Source of the DNA: Escherichia phage ECBP5
Sequence record: NC_027330.1
Strand: one strand, 5' to 3'
DNA: 45,403 nt
Under the pieces are notes generated by a model. That model searched no databases and was not told the DNA's origin. It worked only from the letters and a program-made list of their open reading frames with translations. Both the position numbers and the translations under genes were made by a program. Of this stretch, positions 695 through 45,403 are shown piece by piece (positions within the stretch are counted from its first letter, which is position 1; each line of letters starts with the position of its first letter).

Positions 695-1729
695 ATGCAA
701 AACATTAATGACTCTCTGCTGGCTATCATCAAGGGCTTTGACAAGATGACTGTTAAGGCTGCTTGGACTGAGGTTGATGCGCTGGGTGTAGATGTTAGCT
801 CATTGAATACCAAAACCCGTGAGGGCTTTATTACCTCTCTTGACCAGCTGCGCGTAAGCCTGAATGAGGCAGCTGTAGTTGAGGAGGAAGCTACTCTGAT
901 GTCTGAGCTGGATTGCTTAGAGGGTGAGATTAAGGCTACTATCGCTGATGCTGGTAAGGCTACTTTCCACTTAGGCGAGCTGCTGCTGAAAGCTAAAGAT
1001 GCTCACGAAAGCACACCGGACTTTCTGAAGTGGGTAGATGAGAAGTTTGGAATCAAGAAAGCTTGGGCTTATCGCTTGATGAAAGTGGCTAGCGTATTCC
1101 AAGAGGATGCATGGAAAGCAACTGCTGTTGAGGTGCTGTACACCCTGCAATCCCAAGCCACTGACAGCCAGCTTGAGCAAGCCAGAGAGCTGGCTGAGGC
1201 TGGCAAGCTAAACCGCAAGACTCTCTCCGAGCTGCTGGAACCTGTAGCGCCACCAGTTAAACAAGCTGAGCAGCCAGAGCCACAGAGTAGCCAGAAGCTG
1301 CTGCAACAAGCTGCGGACAGCCTGATTGCAAGCGCTGCTGAGCCACAGGAGGCCGCGCCACAGCTGCCAGAGTCTAGTGCACTAGACAGCAAGCCACAGG
1401 AGGATAAAGAAGACTTGATGGAGCTTGTAAGAGATTTACGTGAGCAACTGGCACTACAGCAGCAGCAGAATGCGGAGCTTATGAAGCAAATCACAGAGGC
1501 TAATAAGCCACGCATAGCGGCTAGTAACGCGCCTATGCTGCCTCAGTTCTCTAGCACTTGCATGTACGCCCGTTTAGGGCTGGCTGCTGAGGATGCAGCA
1601 GATAAGGCTAAGATTCTGGAAGCATTCAAGAGCTTGTGTAAGGCTGGCTATGGCCGCCAGCATGAAGCGTATAGCTTGCTTGATGAAGCTCGCCATAAGC
1701 TCATTCACGCTATGGAGGACGCAGCATGA
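695..1729 (+). CDS. Early hypothetical protein with Q/A/P-rich low-complexity central region
   Basis: 344-aa ORF with GAGG-type RBS upstream; no recognised catalytic motif. Confidence 0.7.
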   Translation: MQNINDSLLAIIKGFDKMTVKAAWTEVDALGVDVSSLNTKTREGFITSLDQLRVSLNEAAVVEEEATLMSELDCLEGEIKATIADAGKATFHLGELLLKAKDAHESTPDFLKWVDEKFGIKKAWAYRLMKVASVFQEDAWKATAVEVLYTLQSQATDSQLEQARELAEAGKLNRKTLSELLEPVAPPVKQAEQPEPQSSQKLLQQAADSLIASAAEPQEAAPQLPESSALDSKPQEDKEDLMELVRDLREQLALQQQQNAELMKQITEANKPRIAASNAPMLPQFSSTCMYARLGLAAEDAADKAKILEAFKSLCKAGYGRQHEAYSLLDEARHKLIHAMEDAA

Positions 1730-5948: not shown

Positions 5949-5954
5949 GTCACA

Positions 5955-5984
5955 GGCAGCTACTTAGGTGGCTGCCTTTTCTTT
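5955..5984 (+). terminator. Rho-independent terminator candidate closing the early/RNAP operon
   Basis: GGCAGC...GCTGCC stem followed by TTTTCTTTT. Confidence 0.5.
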
Positions 5985-5994
5985 TATCTGGCTT

Positions 5995-6078
5995 GTACTA
6001 GTTTGATAGTACAGTTGTTGAGAGTTATTCTCAGTCTAGTATACTAGACTAGACCGAATCGTACTAGTTGGCTAGTAC
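5995..6078. repeat. Cluster of three short palindromes
   Basis: GTACTAGTTTGATAGTAC, AGTCTAGTATACTAGACT and GTACTAGTTGGCTAGTAC in tandem. Confidence 0.7.
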
Positions 6079-6153
6079 AACAGGCGTTCCTACGTGAATA
6101 CTTTAAAATTTTGCGGGCGATTATCCGTCAGAATTTAAAGTTTTCTGAAAATC

Positions 6154-6175
6154 TTTAGGCACTACAATAGGGAGC
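6154..6175 (+). promoter_or_regulatory. Phage-RNAP promoter candidate (consensus copy)
   Basis: TTTAGGCACTACAATAGGGAGC; resembles the T7-class promoter layout (CACTA..ATAGG core, +1 G). Confidence 0.6.
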
Positions 6176-6274
6176 AAGCTAAGTAAGTTAAGTAAGCTAT
6201 AGTAAGCTAACTAAAGCTTAGTAAGCTCCCCTCTTTCCCTCTTTATAGAGGGATATAATATAGTAAGCCTTATC

Positions 6275-6313
6275 AGCCCTCTTGAGTGTAGTAGCTCAGG
6301 AGGGCTTTATTTT
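6275..6313 (+). terminator. Rho-independent terminator candidate
   Basis: 12-bp stem AGCCCTCTTGAG/CTCAGGAGGGCT (one mismatch) followed by TTATTTT. Confidence 0.6.
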
Positions 6314-6331
6314 GTCTAGTACACTAGACTG
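6313..6331. repeat. Palindrome AGTCTAGTACACTAGACT family copy
   Basis: GTCTAGTACACTAGACTGG. Confidence 0.7.
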
Positions 6332-6335
6332 GAGA

Positions 6336-6357
6336 CTTAGGCACTCCAATAGATAAC
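6336..6357 (+). promoter_or_regulatory. Phage-RNAP promoter candidate (variant)
   Basis: CTTAGGCACTCCAATAGATAAC; two substitutions relative to consensus. Confidence 0.45.
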
Positions 6358-6375: not shown

Positions 6376-6528
6376 ATGCAAACTAGTATTAAGCCAGAGA
6401 AGATGCAGTCTAAGAAGCTACGTAAGCTGAATGAGAAGGAGCAAGAGGAGCTTGCAATCCGTCAGCAGCATAAGGGCAAGCACCATAAGACCCAGCGTGG
6501 CAAGCGCCCTGAGTGGGAGGCTTATTAA
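6376..6528 (+). CDS. Small basic hypothetical protein (50 aa)
   Basis: GGAG RBS upstream; K/R-rich; stop 2 nt before the primase-helicase ATG; not in ORF track. Confidence 0.45.
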   Translation: MQTSIKPEKMQSKKLRKLNEKEQEELAIRQQHKGKHHKTQRGKRPEWEAY

Positions 6529-9385: not shown

Positions 9386-9541
9386 ATGTCTGACCTTGAG
9401 GCTCGTGCTCGTGCTGGCGACCCTTGGGCGCAGGCTCAGCTGACTAAGCAAGCTATGGGCTTTGCTAACGCCATGCAAGCTGATGTCCGTGAGGGAGCTG
9501 ACATGCAAGACCGCAAGGACTTGCTGCTTATTAATCGATAA
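9386..9541 (+). CDS. Small hypothetical protein; alternative start at 9302
   Basis: In-frame ATGs at 9302 (overlapping upstream gene) and 9386; neither has a strong RBS. Confidence 0.4.
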   Translation: MSDLEARARAGDPWAQAQLTKQAMGFANAMQADVREGADMQDRKDLLLINR

Positions 9542-9578
9542 GCCACTTCGGTGGCTTTAGTATAGTGTACTAGACTGG
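9541..9578 (+). terminator. Hairpin with TTCG loop plus partial palindrome-family copy
   Basis: GCCAC-TTCG-GTGGC followed by TTT, then AGTGTACTAGACTGG. Confidence 0.4.
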
Positions 9579-9585
9579 AGTTAAT

Positions 9586-9855
9586 ATGAAGAAGACTCAT
9601 GTAGAGTTGTGGGCTTTTGGCAGTAATGGTCAGTTAGTTGCAACTGGTCTGGTCACACCAGCTGGTGTTTGCGGCTCTTTGTTTAAGAACTTCCCATGTG
9701 CTTATGGCGAGAGTGCAAGTCCACTAAGTGGTATGATTAAAGTTGATGGGAACTTTGGGTATGGTGTCACTGATAAATCAGAGCTTGAGTGGAAGTTACG
9801 TGCTAAGCGAACCTACCGTGCAGTCCGTTTCCAACGTGTTATTGTAGACTTCTGA
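9586..9855 (+). CDS. Hypothetical protein (89 aa)
   Basis: ORF following an intergenic hairpin. Confidence 0.55.
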   Translation: MKKTHVELWAFGSNGQLVATGLVTPAGVCGSLFKNFPCAYGESASPLSGMIKVDGNFGYGVTDKSELEWKLRAKRTYRAVRFQRVIVDF

Positions 9856-9863
9856 GGTGAATC

Positions 9864-10136
9864 ATGGTTAAAGATACTAGCTGGCAGGCTTACCAAGAAA
9901 TCCTGCGCGGTGGTGTGGCTGTTAAGCAAGCTGAGAAAGTCTTGCAAGTTATTAACTACTTCCCTGAAGGTGTTACCCGTGCTCAGTTGGCTCAGGGTAT
10001 GAACATGCCAATCAACTCAGTTTGTGGTCGTGTCAACGAGCTGCTGAAAGCTGAGGTAATCTATGTGTCAGGTACTGGTAAGTGTCCAGTAACTGGTAGG
10101 ACTGTTGAGATGCTGAAGGTGGTTGAGTATGAGTAA
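9864..10136 (+). CDS. Putative winged-helix DNA-binding protein (90 aa)
   Basis: Helix-turn-helix-like segment VTRAQLAQGMNMPINSVCGRVNELLK followed by a beta-hairpin-like YVSGTGKCPVTGRTVEM; assignment by eye only. Confidence 0.5.
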   Translation: MVKDTSWQAYQEILRGGVAVKQAEKVLQVINYFPEGVTRAQLAQGMNMPINSVCGRVNELLKAEVIYVSGTGKCPVTGRTVEMLKVVEYE

Positions 10137-10826: not shown

Positions 10827-13412
10827 ATGAATAACTTTCCGTCAATGTTTGCCAATAAAGCTGACCGCCCCTCTGGTAAGGGGCGCTTTCTTGTTGGTGA
10901 CCTAGAGGGTGTAGGGCTTGTCAGGGCTATTCGTAAGCCGTCTGACATTCACGTCATCACCCTGCAAGATTACTTTAGCGGTGACTACTGGATTTTCTTC
11001 GACCCTATTGAGAATCGAATCAACCCTAGTGAGCTGCAAATGGAAGGTGAGCAGGATGGCTACATTGAGGATGGTGTTCGTATGCTCATGGAGTCAGAAG
11101 CTTTCTGCTTCCAGAACGGGGTAGGCTTTGACTTGCATGTGTTTGAGAAATGCTTCCCGTGGTTCAAGTATAACTACTTGGAGTCACGAGCAGCTAGACC
11201 ACATGCTGACATCTTCCCGTTTAAGTTTATGGATACCATGCTGGTTAGCCAGCTGACTTATCCAGACCGTCCATTGCCACCACAAGCTTACGCCATCGGA
11301 GCAGGTAATACAGGTCCGCATAGTATTGCAGCTCATGGTATCCGCATGGGTCGCTATAAGCCTGACCATGAGGACTGGTCTACCCTTACTGATGCAATGA
11401 TTCACCGTAACGTGGAAGACGTTGCTATCGGTACTGACATGCTTAAGTGGCTCATGGAGGGTGACTGGGCTGAGCAGAAAGCTCGTGGCCTTAACAAGAC
11501 TACTGGCTGCGGCATCGAGACTGCTTATCAGATGGAGCAGCAAGTAGCGCTCATGATTAGCCGTCAGGAGCAGCGTGGGTTCCGCTTTGATATGGCACAG
11601 GCTTACAAAGACTTCTGTACCATTGATAAGGAGATGGAAGATACAGCAGCTGCTGTTGACCCACTTATCCCACTCAGGCTGGTCACTAAGCCTTATAAGT
11701 TTGCTGACCTTAAATCAAGGTATGATGCACTTCTTAAATCTGGTCTGCTTGAGAATAGTAATCAAGATGATTTAGCTGCTTGGGGTTTATTGAGGCCATG
11801 TGATGTTAAAGACTTCTTCAATGGCATCCATCAGACCATGAAAGCTATGGGCGATGAAGCTCGCATGGGTGACAAGGCTACTATGTGGTCTTTGACAACC
11901 AAGAACGGTGACTACGGCAAGCGCCTGCAAGGTTACTTCCCTGAGATGCGGGGTAACATCAATGATACTCATGACCCTCTTGTAGCTGGTGCATTCACTC
12001 CAATTAGCTTTGAGCATATAGGATTGGGTAACCTTGACTACATCAAAGAGAAGGTGCTGTATCCGCTGGGCTGGCGTGGTGTTAACTTGTCTGACTCTGA
12101 GCAAGAGTGGTATGACGAGCATGGCACAACACGCTATCCGTGGGCTGGTAAGATTGATGATGACTCGCTTGAGCTGTGGAAGAAGAAGCAGGAAGTGCCA
12201 GAGTGGGCGCAGCAGGTTGTTAACTACTACATCTTACGCTCACGTCGCTCAGTTATCCTGAACCGTGGCGACCTTGACCACTTCCTTGAGAAGGGTCAGT
12301 GGCCTAAGCAGAAGAATGGGCGTCATGAATGTCGTGGCCTGCTGGCAGTAGCTTACTGCAAAGAGCATGACATGATGGCTATGGAATACTTTGCTAAGTT
12401 CCGTGAGTGGCCTACATCTGAGGATGAGGACTGGCGTGTACCAGCAGCGGCTTTCAGCATTGGTACTAACACGTTCCGTATGCGTCATCGCTTTGTGGTT
12501 AACATACCTGCTCGTGGGCTGTGGCCTCTGCGTCACCTGTTCATTGCATCCAAGGGTAAGCTTATCTTAGGCTGTGATGGGGCTGGACTTGAGCTGCGTA
12601 TGCTTAGTCACTTTATGAATGACCCTGAGTATCAGGACATCATTCTCACTGGTGACATTCATACACACAACCAGCTCAAAGCAGGCTTGCCTACTCGTGA
12701 TATGGCTAAGACATTCATCTATGCATTCCTGTATGGCTCAGGGATTGATGGCCTAGCTCGCTTGGCTGGCATTAGCTTTAGTGAGATGGAGCAGTGTATT
12801 GCTCGCTTCAAGGCAGAGCTACCTGCACTTGCTAAGCTCATTGAGCGTGTGGAAAATGCTGGTCGCAAGTTCGGATACCTGCAAGCTATTGATGGTAGAT
12901 GGGGTCGTATCCGTCGTAAGAATGGTAAGCCACTGCTGCACACTGCACTTAACGTATTGCTTCAGATGACAGGCTCTCTGGTCATGAAGTATGGTGAGTG
13001 CATCGCTGAGACTCAGATGATTGAGGAAGGAGTTGCATTAGATGATAAAGGCTATCCAGCTTTCGTGGCTAACGTACACGATGAAGTCCAGATGGAAGTC
13101 TCTGAAGATGAAGTTGATGTTATGGACTACACGTTGCCATATACACTTGATGGATTCGAGAATGAGAAGAAAGCTATCAAGGCAGTCTTTGATGTTGAAG
13201 AGAAGCGAGCGCACACAGATGATAGTGGGCGTAAGTGGTCAGCAGCTATCAAGGTTTCTGCTGCTGATGGTACTATCCATTGTCGCAGGTACTATCATCG
13301 AGCTGGTCACATCCTTATGGATGCTTTCGAGGCTGCTGGTGTTAAGTTCAACATGAGATGCCCACTTGCTGGTGAATATAAGATAGGTCGTAACTGGCAC
13401 GATACTCACTAG
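10827..13412 (+). CDS. DNA polymerase, family A, with 3'-5' exonuclease domain
   Basis: Exo I-like VGDLEG; motif A DGAGLELR; motif B RDMAKTFIYAFLYG; motif C VHDE; 861 aa. Confidence 0.93.
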   Translation: MNNFPSMFANKADRPSGKGRFLVGDLEGVGLVRAIRKPSDIHVITLQDYFSGDYWIFFDPIENRINPSELQMEGEQDGYIEDGVRMLMESEAFCFQNGVGFDLHVFEKCFPWFKYNYLESRAARPHADIFPFKFMDTMLVSQLTYPDRPLPPQAYAIGAGNTGPHSIAAHGIRMGRYKPDHEDWSTLTDAMIHRNVEDVAIGTDMLKWLMEGDWAEQKARGLNKTTGCGIETAYQMEQQVALMISRQEQRGFRFDMAQAYKDFCTIDKEMEDTAAAVDPLIPLRLVTKPYKFADLKSRYDALLKSGLLENSNQDDLAAWGLLRPCDVKDFFNGIHQTMKAMGDEARMGDKATMWSLTTKNGDYGKRLQGYFPEMRGNINDTHDPLVAGAFTPISFEHIGLGNLDYIKEKVLYPLGWRGVNLSDSEQEWYDEHGTTRYPWAGKIDDDSLELWKKKQEVPEWAQQVVNYYILRSRRSVILNRGDLDHFLEKGQWPKQKNGRHECRGLLAVAYCKEHDMMAMEYFAKFREWPTSEDEDWRVPAAAFSIGTNTFRMRHRFVVNIPARGLWPLRHLFIASKGKLILGCDGAGLELRMLSHFMNDPEYQDIILTGDIHTHNQLKAGLPTRDMAKTFIYAFLYGSGIDGLARLAGISFSEMEQCIARFKAELPALAKLIERVENAGRKFGYLQAIDGRWGRIRRKNGKPLLHTALNVLLQMTGSLVMKYGECIAETQMIEEGVALDDKGYPAFVANVHDEVQMEVSEDEVDVMDYTLPYTLDGFENEKKAIKAVFDVEEKRAHTDDSGRKWSAAIKVSAADGTIHCRRYYHRAGHILMDAFEAAGVKFNMRCPLAGEYKIGRNWHDTH

Positions 13413-13716: not shown

Positions 13717-13802
13717 CAGTTAGCTCCCTCTACTGAGGGAGTTTGCTAGAGGGCCTAGTGTGGTTCTCTATCAAGCTATCAACTAACGTTAGGAGAAACA
13801 CA

Positions 13803-14567
13803 ATGTCTTTAGATAACTTTGACTTCGGCGCAGACCTAGCAGAAGCGTCTGGTGTCAAACGAGTAAACCCTGAAGTTGGCTTGCACTTTGCTCGTTTGCG
13901 TAGTGTGATTCACTTAGGCTCAATTGCTGCCATGTACCGTGGAAAGCCAAAGCCACCAGTTAACAAGGCTGCTTTCATCTTTGAACTTAAGGGCGACCTT
14001 GATGAGATTGATGACCTGCACCCTGACAACGGTGAGCCATTGTGCATCGGCATCGGGGTTAACCTTACCAAAGGTGACAATGCCAAGCTCACAGAAGTTA
14101 TGGCAGCTCTCATCTCTAAGAAGGAGATGGAGGAAGGTACTGTCAAAGGTATGGATGACCTGATTGGTCGTGTCTGCCAGCTTGACCTGAAGGGCAGTGA
14201 TGCCAAGGGTGATGACGGTAAGCCTAAGTACGTTGACATCAAATCACTCAGCCCTGTGGCTAAGGCATTCGCCGCACAGATTCCTGAGCTGTCAGTAGCT
14301 GGCGTAGGTCACTGCCGCCTGTCTCAGCTGTCTATGGCTGCGATGGATGAGCTGAACGTGTTCCTCGATGTCCAAGAGGGCATCATGAAATCTGAGGAGT
14401 GGAAAGCAGGAACGCACCCAGCAATCGCTCTGGTAGAGGAAATCCGCAAGGAGCGTCCGAACTATGCCAAGGCTGAGAAGAAGTCTGACAAAGGCGCTGA
14501 CGAGCCACAGGGCGAGCAGGAGCCGTCTAAGCCAGCTGAGCAGATGAACACCGATGAGGAGTTCTAG
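13803..14567 (+). CDS. Putative ssDNA-binding protein (T7 gp2.5-like by size and tail); acidic C-terminus ending in Phe
   Basis: AGGAGAAAC RBS before ATG 13803; C-terminus ...EQEPSKPAEQMNTDEEF; N-terminal DNFDFGA motif shared with the exonuclease; SSB call is an inference. Confidence 0.6.
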   Translation: MSLDNFDFGADLAEASGVKRVNPEVGLHFARLRSVIHLGSIAAMYRGKPKPPVNKAAFIFELKGDLDEIDDLHPDNGEPLCIGIGVNLTKGDNAKLTEVMAALISKKEMEEGTVKGMDDLIGRVCQLDLKGSDAKGDDGKPKYVDIKSLSPVAKAFAAQIPELSVAGVGHCRLSQLSMAAMDELNVFLDVQEGIMKSEEWKAGTHPAIALVEEIRKERPNYAKAEKKSDKGADEPQGEQEPSKPAEQMNTDEEF

Positions 14568-14609
14568 TCTAGTACACTAGACTGAAGCCGTACTAGTTAG
14601 CTAGTACGG
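14564..14609. repeat. Two adjacent palindromes (family copies)
   Basis: TCTAGTCTAGTACACTAGACTGA and CCGTACTAGTTAGCTAGTACGG. Confidence 0.7.
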
Positions 14610-14610
14610 T

Positions 14611-14633
14611 ATTAGGCACTACAATAGGAATAG
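14611..14633 (+). promoter_or_regulatory. Phage-RNAP promoter candidate (consensus copy)
   Basis: ATTAGGCACTACAATAGGAATAG. Confidence 0.6.
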
Positions 14634-14750
14634 AATGCTCAACTTATGCATCCCTGTATCTGGCGGTCGCTACAAAGGATACAGGTTGCCTATAGGCTGT
14701 AATGGTGTCCAAAGCCAACGGCTTGGGTGGTGCATAAGCATGAGCATTCT
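14634..14750 (+). other. Structured element between tandem promoters (nested inverted repeats); candidate small RNA or replication origin
   Basis: Outer inverted repeat ATGCTCAACTTATGCA / TGCATAAGCATGAGCAT enclosing hairpins CCTGTATC..GATACAGG and CCAAGCC..GGCTTGG; no ORF. Confidence 0.35.
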
Positions 14751-14755
14751 TAACC

Positions 14756-14779
14756 TATTAAGCACTACAATAGGAATAG
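14756..14779 (+). promoter_or_regulatory. Phage-RNAP promoter candidate
   Basis: CTATTAAGCACTACAATAGGAATAG. Confidence 0.55.
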
Positions 14780-14814
14780 TAGAATAGCCACACCGTGTGT
14801 GCTCCCTTCTCAAC

Positions 14815-14875: not shown

Positions 14876-15235
14876 ATGGCATTTGTAATCAAATCTGATG
14901 TATCCAGTCGTATCGTAGCTGGCTCTTTCAAAAAGTCTGAGTTCTTCTATGTAGCTGATGAAGCTACTGGTGAGCTGGTTGGTAAGAAGTCTCACGACAT
15001 TCGTGAAGAAGCTGAACTGGAGCTGGCTGGTCTGGCAGGTCTGGAAGCTGGTCTGGAGTTCGCTAAGGCTCAGTTCCCTAAACTGTCCACTAAAGCTCAG
15101 GTTGGCAAAGCCAACGTAATCTCCGAGTATCTGGCTTGGGAAGCAGCTGGTAAGCCAGTTAAGTCTGTTGAAGAAGCAGACTCTGAAGAAGTACCGGAAG
15201 CTCCAGAAGCTGCCGCAGAAGACGAAACATTCTAA
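14876..15235 (+). CDS. Acidic 119-aa protein with SSB-like acidic C-terminal tail ending in Phe; probably highly expressed
   Basis: Preceded by three promoter-like motifs and followed by a strong terminator; net negative charge; C-terminus EAPEAAAEDETF. Confidence 0.75.
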   Translation: MAFVIKSDVSSRIVAGSFKKSEFFYVADEATGELVGKKSHDIREEAELELAGLAGLEAGLEFAKAQFPKLSTKAQVGKANVISEYLAWEAAGKPVKSVEEADSEEVPEAPEAAAEDETF

Positions 15236-39335: not shown

Positions 39336-39356
39336 CAGTCTAGTACGCTAGACTGG
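39336..39356. repeat. Palindrome family copy, terminator-like
   Basis: CAGTCTAGTACGCTAGACTGG followed by CCTCTTTCT. Confidence 0.6.
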
Positions 39357-42873: not shown

Positions 42874-43033
42874 TAGACCGACTGGTCTAGCGTAAGTCAT
42901 TGATGTTGTATCAGCTAACGAGTACATGAGAGCGCTGTACGTGAATACTTGCTGGCTCAAGCTGGCTGTGGCTCACAGAATTCTCCAGAGTGCGCTATAC
43001 ATATCAATGACTTACGTTAGACCGACTGGTCTA
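42874..43033. repeat. Two direct copies of 16-bp near-palindrome TAGACCGACTGGTCTA flanking an inverted repeat CGTAAGTCATTGAT / ATCAATGACTTACG
   Basis: Copies at 42874-42889 and 43018-43033; inverted repeat arms at 42891-42904 and 43003-43016. Confidence 0.75.
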
Positions 43034-43486
43034 CTAGTGGCTGGTCAGGCAGCTGCTGTGAGCTGGCTAGGTGGCTTACGGATAGCCGATTGTGAGCAGC
43101 CAGTGAGCCGCTGTGGGCTTCAGCTCCGCTGTGGCTACGGTTGGCTTGCCAGTGGCTTGAGGCGCTCTGTGAGCTGCTGAGGGCTGTGGCTTGCTGTACT
43201 CGTGTGCTAGTACGCTGCTGTGTGTATCTGTCTTTAGTCTGATGGGCTACTGTCTTTAGTTTGCTGCACCACTGGTAGCTTATTGGGTAGCTCATAGGTA
43301 GCTTACAAGGCTCACAGCTTGCTGGTACTACTGAGGGCTTACTAGGTAGCTTGCTATCACTGACTAGGTAGCTGCTGTTAGTTCACTAGGTAGCTAGCTA
43401 TGGCTTACTAGGTAGTTACTAGGTGGATTGATGTAAGCTTACTCAAGCTCTCTCTTAGTGCATCATTCGATGCACAATATAAGAAG

Positions 43487-43510
43487 AATAAGACACTACA
43501 ATAAGAATAG
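43487..43510 (+). promoter_or_regulatory. Phage-RNAP promoter-like motif (variant) near presumed left end
   Basis: AATAAGACACTACAATAAGAATAG. Confidence 0.4.
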
Positions 43511-43588
43511 AGTACGCCTTGCCAACAGCTCTCATGAGCTATCTAGGTGGCTTACTATCACTTACATCCAACTAACTAGGAGGCTTAC

Positions 43589-43687
43589 ATGAGCCTAGAT
43601 ATGCTGTACACACTAGTAGTCTGCTTTCTCATTAACTTGTTTGTACACTTCATAGCATTTAGCTTGCTAGAGGTATTGGCTGGGTAG
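43589..43687 (+). CDS. Small hydrophobic peptide (32 aa)
   Basis: TAGGAGG RBS 7 nt upstream of ATG; single hydrophobic helix; weak support. Confidence 0.25.
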   Translation: MSLDMLYTLVVCFLINLFVHFIAFSLLEVLAG

Positions 43688-43693
43688 CTTGAG

Positions 43694-43712
43694 TCAGTCT
43701 AGTACACTAGAT
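43694..43712. repeat. Palindrome family copy
   Basis: CAGTCTAGTACACTAGATT. Confidence 0.6.
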
Positions 43713-43745
43713 TAAGCTAATGTGAGCTACATCACTAAAATAGTG

Positions 43746-43774
43746 TTGACTAGGTAGCTCACTGCCTGTATAGT
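43746..43774 (+). promoter_or_regulatory. Host sigma70-type early promoter candidate
   Basis: TTGACT, 17-bp spacer, TATAGT; downstream TACTTACA resembles the T7 A1 start region. Confidence 0.45.
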
Positions 43775-44031
43775 TACTTACATCAAGACGACACAGCAAC
43801 AAGTTATCTTGATAGTGGCTCTAGTAGCTACTTGCTCTTTAACAATATGATGATTAGAAGCTTAGGCTGTACGGGTATTACTTCTCCTCAATCCGTCGCA
43901 AGACATCAGTGAGAGGCTAGCAGGAAGCGCTAGGGCAATAGAAAGTGACCTTATGCAGTGCTGCTAATCATCAAGCTCTTTAACAATCTGGAATCTACCT
44001 GATAGGCTTACTACAACAAAGGTGAACTATC

Positions 44032-45192: not shown

Positions 45193-45403
45193 ATGAGCAG
45201 GGAATTATCTTTAAGGTTTAATGAATCTAATAAGCGCATGGATGCATTGCTAAGTGCAATGAATAGGGCTAACCCTCTATCAGTAGAGTATGAGGAGCTT
45301 AGTAAAATGGCTCACAGCGAGTTGCAAACAATGCAAGCTATTAACAACAGCTCATTGCAACAACTAGAAATGCACTGGACAACCTCAGGTGACTTTAGCC
45401 ACC
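45193..45403 (+). CDS. Early hypothetical protein, 5' portion (continues at 1..234 across the wrap-around)
   Basis: ATG at 45193 one base after the upstream stop; open to the window end. Confidence 0.5.
   Translation, partial: MSRELSLRFNESNKRMDALLSAMNRANPLSVEYEELSKMAHSELQTMQAINNSSLQQLEMHWTTSGDFSH
45196..45403. repeat. Exact duplicate of 1-208
   Basis: Identical to window start. Confidence 0.9.

Follow-up and report, generated by a model that had tools for sequence, protein, structure and literature searches.

What purpose do the short palindromes serve that recur along the genome of Escherichia phage ECBP5 (sequence record NC_027330.1; 45,403 nucleotides (nt), this whole stretch being referred to below as the window), and which proteins might recognize them? 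The window is a complete podovirus genome of the T7/SP6 supergroup, genus Gajwadongvirus, with all of its genes on the + strand; its identity to Pectobacterium phage PP99, 'Pseudomonas' phage MR4, Vibrio phage JSF38 and several Klebsiella phages is ~92%. The palindromes fall into two distinct families, here designated A and B, both of which are probably recognized by proteins as double-stranded DNA rather than acting as hairpins in RNA. From the co-variation evidence it is fairly probable that the family A sites serve as operators for an early protein of 344 amino acids (aa) encoded by the phage itself. The family B boxes match the operators of the host Trp repressor, TrpR, and whether TrpR itself binds them is a question on which the evidence is nearly evenly balanced, leaning slightly against.

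Family A: a palindrome dispersed over seven sites

The family A unit, AGTCTAGT-NN-ACTAGACT, consists of two 8-base-pair (bp) arms around a 2-bp centre (its core may also be written GTCTAGTA|YACTAGAC), and the centres are usually not self-complementary (AC, AT, GC, GT). A search of both strands with AGTCTAGTACACTAGACT, allowing up to 3 mismatches, recovered seven sites (14 strand matches), as against 0.09 expected from shuffles:

1371..1388, AGTCTAGTGCACTAGACA, inside the open reading frame (ORF) 695-1729 at about codon 226, in codons for a disordered linker
6033..6050, AGTCTAGTATACTAGACT, its centre TATACT being the -10 hexamer of a sigma-70-like promoter (TTGAGA-16-TATACT, 6018-6045)
6313..6330, TGTCTAGTACACTAGACT, between the U-run of a terminator, which it adjoins, and the phage promoter at 6337, 6 nt further on
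9559..9576, AGTATAGT-GT-ACTAGACT, with one variant half-site, after a UUCG-loop hairpin and before a ribosome-binding site (RBS) and ATG
14566..14583, AGTCTAGTACACTAGACT, overlapping the stop codon of the single-stranded DNA-binding protein (SSB)-like gene 13743-14567
39337..39354, AGTCTAGTACGCTAGACT, with flanks that extend the stem to 11 bp, then CUCUUUCU
43696..43713, AGTCTAGTACACTAGATT, upstream of the strongest sigma-70-like early promoter (43746-43774), with 32 nt to its -35

The family thus comprises many copies of one palindrome, some of them at promoters and others remote, as in a KorB/ParB-type system of dispersed operators. Where the sites lie at phage promoters, their proximal edge is ~18-24 bp upstream of +1. 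Site 1371 has clade-specific counterparts at the same codons in PP99, KL01, Reminis and the contigs L121, L113, L120, L114 and L115, and the counterparts of site 14566 follow the orthologous gene in every clade. The terminator-palindrome-promoter order seen at site 6313 recurs in DT115P1, L111, L112, L116, L121, Tola and AerP220. The gene after site 9559 is, in the relatives, that of a winged helix-turn-helix (wHTH) protein and, in the window, the unique ORF 9586-9855. Site 43696 forms a conserved island (97% identity) with variable DNA on either side and has clade-specific counterparts at the same place.

The count bears out the initial annotation in its recognition of a repeated family, whose sites it had placed correctly to within 2 nt while missing that at 1371. 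Its description of them as perfect palindromes does not hold for most copies, the 2-bp centre usually being non-self-complementary, and the copies are not always intergenic, given that site 1371 lies inside ORF 695-1729 and site 14566 overlaps the stop codon of ORF 13743-14567. The pairing with a second palindrome is found at 5995/6033/6061 and 14566/14590 and not at the other loci. Likewise, a position just upstream of a phage promoter applies to 6313 and 14566/14590 and not to 6033 (~100 nt upstream of the promoter at 6155), 1371, 9559, 39337 or 43696. The second palindrome itself, regarded there as a companion of the first, belongs to a family of its own, conserved more widely and matching the operator of host TrpR.

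Clade-specific palindromes and the putative recognition helix of the early protein

Conservation in related phages, which the initial annotation had proposed to compare, is present in the form of clade-specific palindromes at the same positions: each clade has a palindrome of its own, of the same size, at the same ~7 positions, with 4-9 copies in the relatives and a shared skeleton of GTnTnnTA|nAnnAnAC. Such palindromes precede the main early sigma-70 promoter, fall within the linker codons of the gene for the 344-aa protein and occur in the long non-coding region that follows the RNA polymerase (RNAP) gene. They are also found between a terminator, which they adjoin, and the promoter of the primase/helicase operon a few nt further on; immediately ahead of the wHTH gene; and past the SSB-like gene. 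The more distant relatives have no AGTCTAGT..ACTAGACT. The half-sites by clade are:

GTCTAGTA, window clade
GTATAGTA, Edwardsiella phages
GTGTAGTA, P0103
GTCTCGTA, P0105 and P0108
GTCTACTG, P0109, P0111 and P0112
GTCTCYTR, P0116
GTCTCYTA, KL01, Reminis and Tola
GTGTACTA, P0120 and AerP220

The candidate for a factor that would track this variation is encoded in the early region:

695..1729, + strand, gene of the 344-aa early protein (phrog_4571, SP6 gp7 family), just upstream of the RNAP gene

Homologues of this protein are encoded on roughly 150 contigs. It contains the motif F-G-I-K-K-[A/S]-W-[A/C]-[Y/F]-[R/K]-L-M-K-V, which in the window reads K121-K-A-W-A-Y-R127-L-M-K-V and includes a putative recognition helix (residues 122-134). 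When this helix was tabulated against the half-site over 16 genomes, with the contigs of 12 diverse homologues included, residue 127 proved to be arginine in 10/10 genomes with A at base 5 of the half-site and lysine in 6/6 with C, and it is the sole column of the ~340 in the alignment that partitions perfectly by base 5. Further, A123S is the only identical substitution common to three sister pairs that switch from GTCT to GTGT, namely window/P0102 (68% identity), P0116/P0120 (83%) and Tola/AerP220 (76%). Judged by these alignments, the putative specificity residues change together with the operator bases in independent lineages. Tola and KL01, whose homologues of this protein show no more than 39% overall identity, have the helix as well as the palindrome in common.

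An AlphaFold2 model of the protein built with 31 sequences (mean pLDDT 76) presents a helical N-terminal domain (residues 1-180, pLDDT 80-90), with a helix-turn-helix (HTH) made up of helices 107-118 and 122-134 that is predicted to resemble that of KorB/ParB. It is followed by a disordered linker (184-236), the codons of which hold the intragenic site 1371, a coiled coil (237-269), through which the protein is predicted to dimerise, and a small C-terminal domain. A putative operator is found inside the protein's own gene in most clades. As a separate observation, the C-terminal domain (283-343; PMLPQF..ARLGL..ILEAFK.LCKAGYGR.HEA) yields J-domain-like structural matches (xRbj, Tim14/Tim16) and has no HPD motif, which hints at contact with a host chaperone or other partner.

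At the sequence level no Pfam or PDB match links the 344-aa protein to KorB, and its N-terminal region is a helical bundle unrelated to the ParB N-terminal domain. No ParBc, ParA or KorA family was detected in 20 scanned small ORFs (from the early region and 8.5-14.6 kb), nor by PHROGs for ten. We do not file the protein as a KorB/ParB family member but regard it, by analogy, as one that might work like them. A phyletic search by presence and absence for some other clade-specific factor returned only a 50-aa basic protein (6376-6528) and a deoxynucleoside monophosphate kinase, neither of them convincing, and no Tola protein is nearer to KL01 than to AerP220.

Several observations weigh against this attribution of family A to the early protein. 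Nufs112 combines S123 with GTCC/GTCT, and P0108 has F126 while base 6 is still G; base 6 itself follows phylogeny, with 38 columns that partition by it, and is not judgeable on this basis. No palindrome family is detectable in SP6, even though it encodes a homologue of the 344-aa protein. Additionally, the sequence specificity of KorB comes largely from residues outside its HTH, so that a readout by the helix is not guaranteed by the analogy.

Family B and the operators of the host Trp repressor

Families A and B are both of the form CTAG-N4-CTAG, yet they behave as separate families, of which B is the more widely conserved. The exact pattern GTACT-N8-AGTAC occurs four times in the window, as against 0.065 expected, and the broader search for the second palindrome gave seven matches (0.29 expected), located at 5995, 6061, 14590 and, more weakly, 43196 and 42908:

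5995..6012, GTACTAGTTTGATAGTAC, identical at 16/18 positions to the E. coli aroL operator GTACTAGTTTGATGGTAT
6061..6078, GTACTAGTTGGCTAGTAC, then the conserved AACAGGCG..CTACGTGAATAC
14590..14607, GTACTAGTTAGCTAGTAC, 4 nt upstream of the phage promoter at 14612 and identical at 16/18 positions to the trp operator
43196..43213, GTACTCGTGTGCTAGTAC, at the left genome end, 12 nt upstream of TATCTGTCTTT and identical at 16/18 positions to the mtr operator GTACTCGTGTACTGGTAC
42908..42925, GTATCAGCTAACGAGTAC, a degenerate box orthologous to the terminal-repeat box of Nufs112
43225..43236, + strand, TATCTGTCTTT, resembling the T7 class II pause/termination, or concatemer-junction (CJ), signal

The boxes at 5995, 6061, 14590 and 43196 display the 18-bp dyad, the GNACT identity elements and the CTAG cores 8 bp apart (GTACTAGTTAACTAGTAC) of TrpR operators, with 16/18 agreement with those of aroL, trp and mtr. 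For these comparisons the trp promoter/operator sequence was verified in 5421 E. coli genomes, and MG1655 supplied the sequences of the aroL and mtr operators; the stretch read there did not reveal the aroH operator. The published TrpR motif is GTACTAGTTAACTAGT (PMC2811016), and an operator used as a TrpR roadblock is found in the literature. The phage has no homologue of TrpR or MetJ detectable by Pfam, BLASTP or phmmer.

The composite of A-site, B-box and AACAGGCG is present in all clades, and the arrangement at 14590 is found also in Nufs112 and L027, though the specificity bases of the promoter differ there. At the genome end, four B boxes lie within the annotated 410-bp terminal repeat of Nufs112 and five at the left end of KL01 and of Reminis. 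In 12 genomes the TATCTGT signal, TATCTGTCTTT, comes 10-20 nt after the last left-end box; it resembles the T7 CJ sequence (ATCTGTT), the class II pause signal at the concatemer junction. SP6 has no family B boxes.

A different host repressor is suggested at the same position in the Aeromonas phages. AerP220 (L033) has three exact and one near CTGT-N8-ACAG palindromes at 280-461, in its left terminal region, while Tola (L109) has one at 602, with a partial copy overlapping it (590-617), near the end of its annotated 631-bp direct terminal repeat; in both phages the last copy is followed by ATCTGT. The CTGT-N8-ACAG pattern, exemplified by ACTGTATGCATGTACAGT, is that of the gammaproteobacterial LexA box, and it fills the place taken by the TrpR-like boxes in the enterobacterial relatives; the window has no such LexA-like box. 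Because two host-repressor consensuses occupy one position, recruitment of host repressors is the more economical reading.

Four points speak against TrpR as the binder. The centre of every B copy is asymmetric (T..G) on the + strand, a feature that TrpR binding leaves unaccounted for, and TrpR-type regulation is not known from Pseudomonas or Ralstonia, the host labels of MR4 and Reminis, both of them doubtful. The co-location with TATCTGT would be no less consistent with a phage-encoded binder acting in packaging. Moreover, the multi-copy B boxes found in a scan of IMG/VR were confined to this phage's relatives; the unrelated phages have only singletons, at about the level of chance, so that unrelated enterobacterial phages lend the TrpR reading no independent support.

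Some of these points (the T..G centre, the co-location and the IMG/VR scan) also favour a serious, if less probable, alternative, namely that family B boxes are sites of a phage replication or packaging function (e.g., of the small terminase or an origin-binding factor) and that their likeness to TrpR operators is coincidental. It accords with the clustering of 3-5 boxes in the terminal-repeat region, the last of them always 10-20 nt upstream of TATCTGTCTTT, and with the presence of other boxes in an origin-like region near AACAGGCG..CTACGTG, an element that also occurs at the genome end. It would leave to coincidence the identity of the arms (7/7), the equal spacing, the tolerance of the same variants as in natural TrpR operators (GTACTAG, GTACTCG) and the matches of 16/18 to trp, aroL and mtr. 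A second coincidence would be required for the LexA-box-like palindromes in an independent clade, and no phage protein was found that tracks the switch.

Two further observations concern this family. The B box with AACAGGCG..CGCTACGTGAATAC occurs both at the genome end (42890-42960) and in the origin-like region (6061-6100), and in L023 at 120-200; the element of B box and AACAGGCG..CTACGTG is conserved in Nufs112, L111-L116 and L122. Separately, IMG/VR contigs of 4.2-4.7 kb (L035, L058, L098, L104-L107), possibly of microvirus size, contain a single GTACTAG-N4-CTAGTAC ~55-85 nt from the contig end.

Duplex DNA sites or RNA hairpins

As all genes are on the + strand, every palindrome copy is transcribed; the copies are located at gene junctions and each of them folds to a 7-bp hairpin. 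They might be taken, in the manner of T7 polycistronic mRNAs, for RNase III-type processing sites, stabilisers of 3' ends or terminators, the first and last of which had been put forward in the initial annotation. The fixed T..G orientation of the family B centres would agree with such a role in RNA. The copies at 39337 and 14590, the only two with stems that extend to 10-11 bp (-15 to -18 kcal/mol), could additionally work as RNA hairpins, and they count against a role confined to duplex DNA.

The remaining evidence makes an RNA role improbable. Most of the hairpins are weak, with 6-7-bp stems, a 4-nt loop and energies of -5.7 to -9.7 kcal/mol, while RNase III needs ~20 bp of double-stranded RNA. 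With respect to termination, the palindromes hold 2-3 G-C pairs and no U-run, with the partial exception of 39337 (then CUCUUUCU), and the terminator scan called 5954-5985 and 6275-6312 and none of the palindromes. Genuine RNA hairpins immediately adjoin them and, unlike the palindromes, use UUCG or GNRA loops and U-runs, as exemplified by the UUCG-loop hairpin at 9540, which has GNRA or UUCG counterparts in the relatives. Rfam returned no match for the palindromes.

Further, the half-sites vary independently. Site 9559 combines AGTATAGT with ACTAGACT in all relatives, the Edwardsiella phages have AGTATAGT in both halves, and Nufs112 combines TTGTCCAC and TTGTCTCC halves in either orientation. 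Such free mixing of family A half-sites, with both orientations in use, argues against an RNA stem, which would be mismatched in the mixed copies. Similarly, of 61 distinct B boxes from 19 genomes no more than about half have Watson-Crick inner pairs (28/61 at positions 6/13 and 30/61 at 7/12), while the outer GTACT/AGTAC is kept, a conservation that is partly forced in that the search demanded the core with at most 1 mismatch. Finally, an element that matters by structure alone needs no clade-wide sequence that co-varies with a helix of a protein. Both RNA proposals of the initial annotation thus fare poorly; its operator proposal is favoured by the evidence, with the helix of the 344-aa protein and not that of the wHTH protein as the one that co-varies.

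Recombination signals and the wHTH protein

It is very unlikely, in our estimate, that the palindromes are recombination or mobility signals (i.e., module borders comparable to the PeSL of T4-type phages) or priming sites of a bidirectional origin. Breakpoints of homology with the relatives do lie a few nt from the sites (9581, 14633/14597, 43191 and 43677-43849), an ORF specific to the window is inserted right after site 9559, an exact 103-bp duplication in MR4 is bounded by two A copies, and the arms hold GTC, the core recognized by T7 primase, on both strands. Yet regulatory islands between genes would in any case be expected next to variable accessory genes, and neither the intragenic linker site nor those that abut promoters and terminators are module borders. 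The Edwardsiella variants lose GTC (GTATAG), and the co-variation with the protein helix would be left unexplained.

The wHTH protein, which the initial annotation had named as a possible binder, is encoded next to one of the sites:

9864..10136, + strand, gene of the wHTH protein (phrog_1123, 90 aa), disfavoured as the family A specificity factor

It could be supposed that family A consists of operators of this protein, which would regulate its own synthesis through the copy that precedes its gene. Apart from Tola and AerP220, every clade examined has a family A-type palindrome over the RBS region, 4-12 nt ahead of the start codon, and the protein is conserved in every phage that bears such palindromes. 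Its predicted recognition helix and wing are invariant, whereas the palindromes differ by clade, so it cannot explain clade-specific sites, and we reject it as the binder with only the slightest reservation. The ~5 scattered residue differences between the PP99 and KL01 proteins include none consistent with site type, and those of Tola and AerP220 are 98% identical despite GTCTCYTA as against GTGTACTA. Tola and AerP220 have no site upstream of the gene, and in the window an extra ORF parts the site from it.

Two other candidates were dismissed: a MetJ met-box reading of family A (GTCT-N8-AGAC) gives, by inspection, ~4/8 consensus matches per box with failure of the key G2/A3, and a likeness of family A to phage RNAP promoters over -7..+1 (TACACTAG vs TACAATAG; AGTACACA shared in AerP220) is inconsistent in register across clades.

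Genomic context and neighbouring features

The phage promoter consensus is TTAGGCACTACAATAGG, with copies that include those at 6155, 6337, 13415, 14612, 14758, 24010 and 38285. Those nearest to the palindromes, together with the terminators called by the scan, are:

6155..6171, + strand, phage RNAP promoter TTAGGCACTACAATAGG
6337..6353, + strand, phage RNAP promoter TTAGGCACTCCAATAGA (given as TTAGGCACTCCAATAG from 6337)
14612..14628, + strand, phage RNAP promoter TTAGGCACTACAATAGG
5954..5985, + strand, intrinsic terminator with a 10-bp stem and U-run, ahead of the B-A-B cluster
6275..6312, + strand, intrinsic terminator with a 13-bp stem and U-run, abutting the family A site 6313

Downstream (3') of the promoter at 6155, the segment 6172-6232 contains TAAGTAAGC-like direct repeats (aagctaagtaagttaagtaagctatagtaagctaactaaagcttagtaagct) and then a TCCCTCTTTATAGAGGGA hairpin. 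Together with the AT-rich segment 6095-6150 it lies after the RNAP gene, where T7 has its primary origin, and the region 6095-6232 may be a replication origin. Just right of the CJ-like signal, 43050-43620 carries short direct repeats of ACTAGGTAGCT type with a period of ~22 nt, an array that recalls the SRL repeats beside the T7 terminal repeat.

The window is permuted relative to PP99, the left end of which corresponds to about 43.0 kb of the window. Positions 1-208 are 100% identical over 208 nt to 45196-45403, and both ends lie inside the early gene region, giving a unique length of 45,195 nt; this identity looks like the assembly overlap of a circularised contig and not a true terminal repeat.

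Of the genes beside the sites, the 274-aa product of 13743-14567 is probably an SSB. Its protein and that of 14876-15235 have an acidic tail with a terminal phenylalanine (..NTDEEF and ..AEDETF, respectively), like the tails of T7 gp2.5 and gp4 that dock on the DNA polymerase. ORF 9586-9855 encodes 89 aa without a homologue in the 7 related genomes compared, with a close copy on the metagenome contig L121; its insertion (window 9582-9860) falls precisely in the gap that separates family A site 9559 from the wHTH gene. A second unique segment, 14634-14812, comes directly after the cluster of A site, B box and promoter. In MR4 the two family A copies that bound the duplication mentioned above are at 13127 and 13230 of L002.

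Palindrome-rich contigs were also observed in IMG/VR. A 13-kb phi29-like contig of 30% G+C (L012, IMGVR_UViG_3300029242_000017) has 20 copies of AGT[C/G]TAGT-NN-ACTA[G/C]ACT at nearly every gene junction, most often 5-10 nt ahead of the RBS and, in two instances, forming the top of bidirectional terminators; its C and G half-sites combine as if independent (10 C-type, 3 G-type and 7 mixed). A 44-kb contig (L014/L015) has ~10 copies of GTCTAGTCGACTAGAC. Neither shares a protein with the window, so homology was rejected and the likeness treated as convergent.

A possible two-layer network

From where the family A sites lie, we infer the following mechanism. The 344-aa protein would be made early by the host RNA polymerase, and its dimer would read each half-site with the HTH recognition helix of a KorB/ParB-like fold. 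Its targets would be an early sigma-70 promoter region, the -10 of the sigma-70-like promoter within the origin-like region, the copy in its own gene ahead of that of the RNAP, the sites immediately following terminators and those ~6-20 bp before phage promoters. As a KorB-like global repressor or roadblock it could then shut down and insulate transcription by the host polymerase, including that of its own gene and the RNAP gene, and its binding may also mark the origin-like region. The family B boxes would be Trp-repressor-type operators, for which host holo-TrpR is the most likely ligand; they are concentrated at the left genome end beside the CJ-like TATCTGT, with others in the origin-like region and at one phage promoter.

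Combined, these readings yield a picture that we put forward only tentatively, in which Gajwadongvirus, Tolavirus and allied clades would run a network of two layers. The first would be a KorB-like regulator with clade-private operators, its specificity shifted by A123S for C to G and by K127R for C to A. The second would consist of arrays of borrowed host-repressor operators in the terminal repeat by the concatemer-junction pause signal, of TrpR type in the phages of Enterobacterales and of LexA type in the Aeromonas phages. The host repressors might serve there as roadblocks or architectural factors for genome-end processing, or as sensors of tryptophan and SOS.

If the 344-aa protein does bind family A, a function would be gained for a widespread 'hypothetical' early gene (SP6 gp7 family, phrog_4571), as would a natural code of protein-DNA recognition with two residue-to-base rules, directly testable by mutagenesis, and orthogonal repressor/operator pairs for T7-type expression systems. 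If host repressors bind the TrpR- and LexA-like boxes, strictly lytic phages would wire metabolic and SOS sensors of the host into their genome ends, which bears on the phage therapy candidates of this group (Klebsiella, Pectobacterium and Edwardsiella phages).

Comparison with known systems

Regulation in T7-like phages is the textbook case of polymerase switching, and we know of no description in them of a phage-encoded network of site-specific operators. A literature search did not find these sequences, nor palindromes in the descriptions of Gajwadongvirus, Tolavirus or Nufs112. As kinds, the repressor/operator network, the KorB-like regulator and the TrpR operator are all known; new, as far as can be told, are such a network in a lytic T7-like phage, a readable residue-to-base co-variation and arrays of host operators at a genome end.

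The RNase III sites of T7 (R0.3 to R18.5) are likewise dispersed, related, intercistronic inverted repeats in a genome of the T7 supergroup; they are irregular hairpins of ~50-60 nt that act in RNA, whereas the elements described here have 7-bp arms, no rule of orientation and half-sites that vary independently. The PeSL cassettes of T4-type phages, made up of an early promoter and a stem-loop, are similarly repeated intergenic units of promoter and palindrome at the borders of variable modules and have been proposed to act in shuffling; the present palindrome, for its part, varies together with a DNA-binding helix and has a copy inside a gene. The lac operator roadblock of T7lac also places a palindrome bound by a repressor beside a T7-type promoter to control or insulate transcription, but it is engineered and has its operator downstream of +1, while the present sites are upstream (edge at about -18 to -24) or behind terminators.

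The E. coli TrpR operators (trpEDCBA, aroH, aroL, mtr and trpR) and family B have in common the 18-bp dyad GTACTAG-N4-CTAGTAC, the invariant GTACT/AGTAC and the tolerance of the same inner variants, with 16/18 identity to three natural operators. Unlike them, family B belongs to a lytic phage, is arrayed 3-5 times in the terminal region, does not overlap a sigma-70 promoter and has the centre TTNG or TCAG in place of TTAA.

For family A, the closest comparison is with KorB and its operator OB in the IncP plasmids RK2/RP4, where a global repressor of the ParB family (PDB 1r71, 8qa8) is served by ~7-12 copies of a short palindrome in a replicon of ~45-60 kb. In both systems some copies are immediately upstream of promoters and others far from any, and one is tied to the expression of the regulator itself. 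OB is a 13-bp site, as against the palindrome of 16-18 bp here, and the replicon here is a lytic T7-like phage in which many of the target promoters are those of a single-subunit phage RNAP. The 344-aa protein differs from KorB in having no relationship to it at the sequence level, no ParB N-terminal CTPase domain and no detected ParA/IncC or KorA partner, and its C-terminus looks like a J-domain without the HPD motif.

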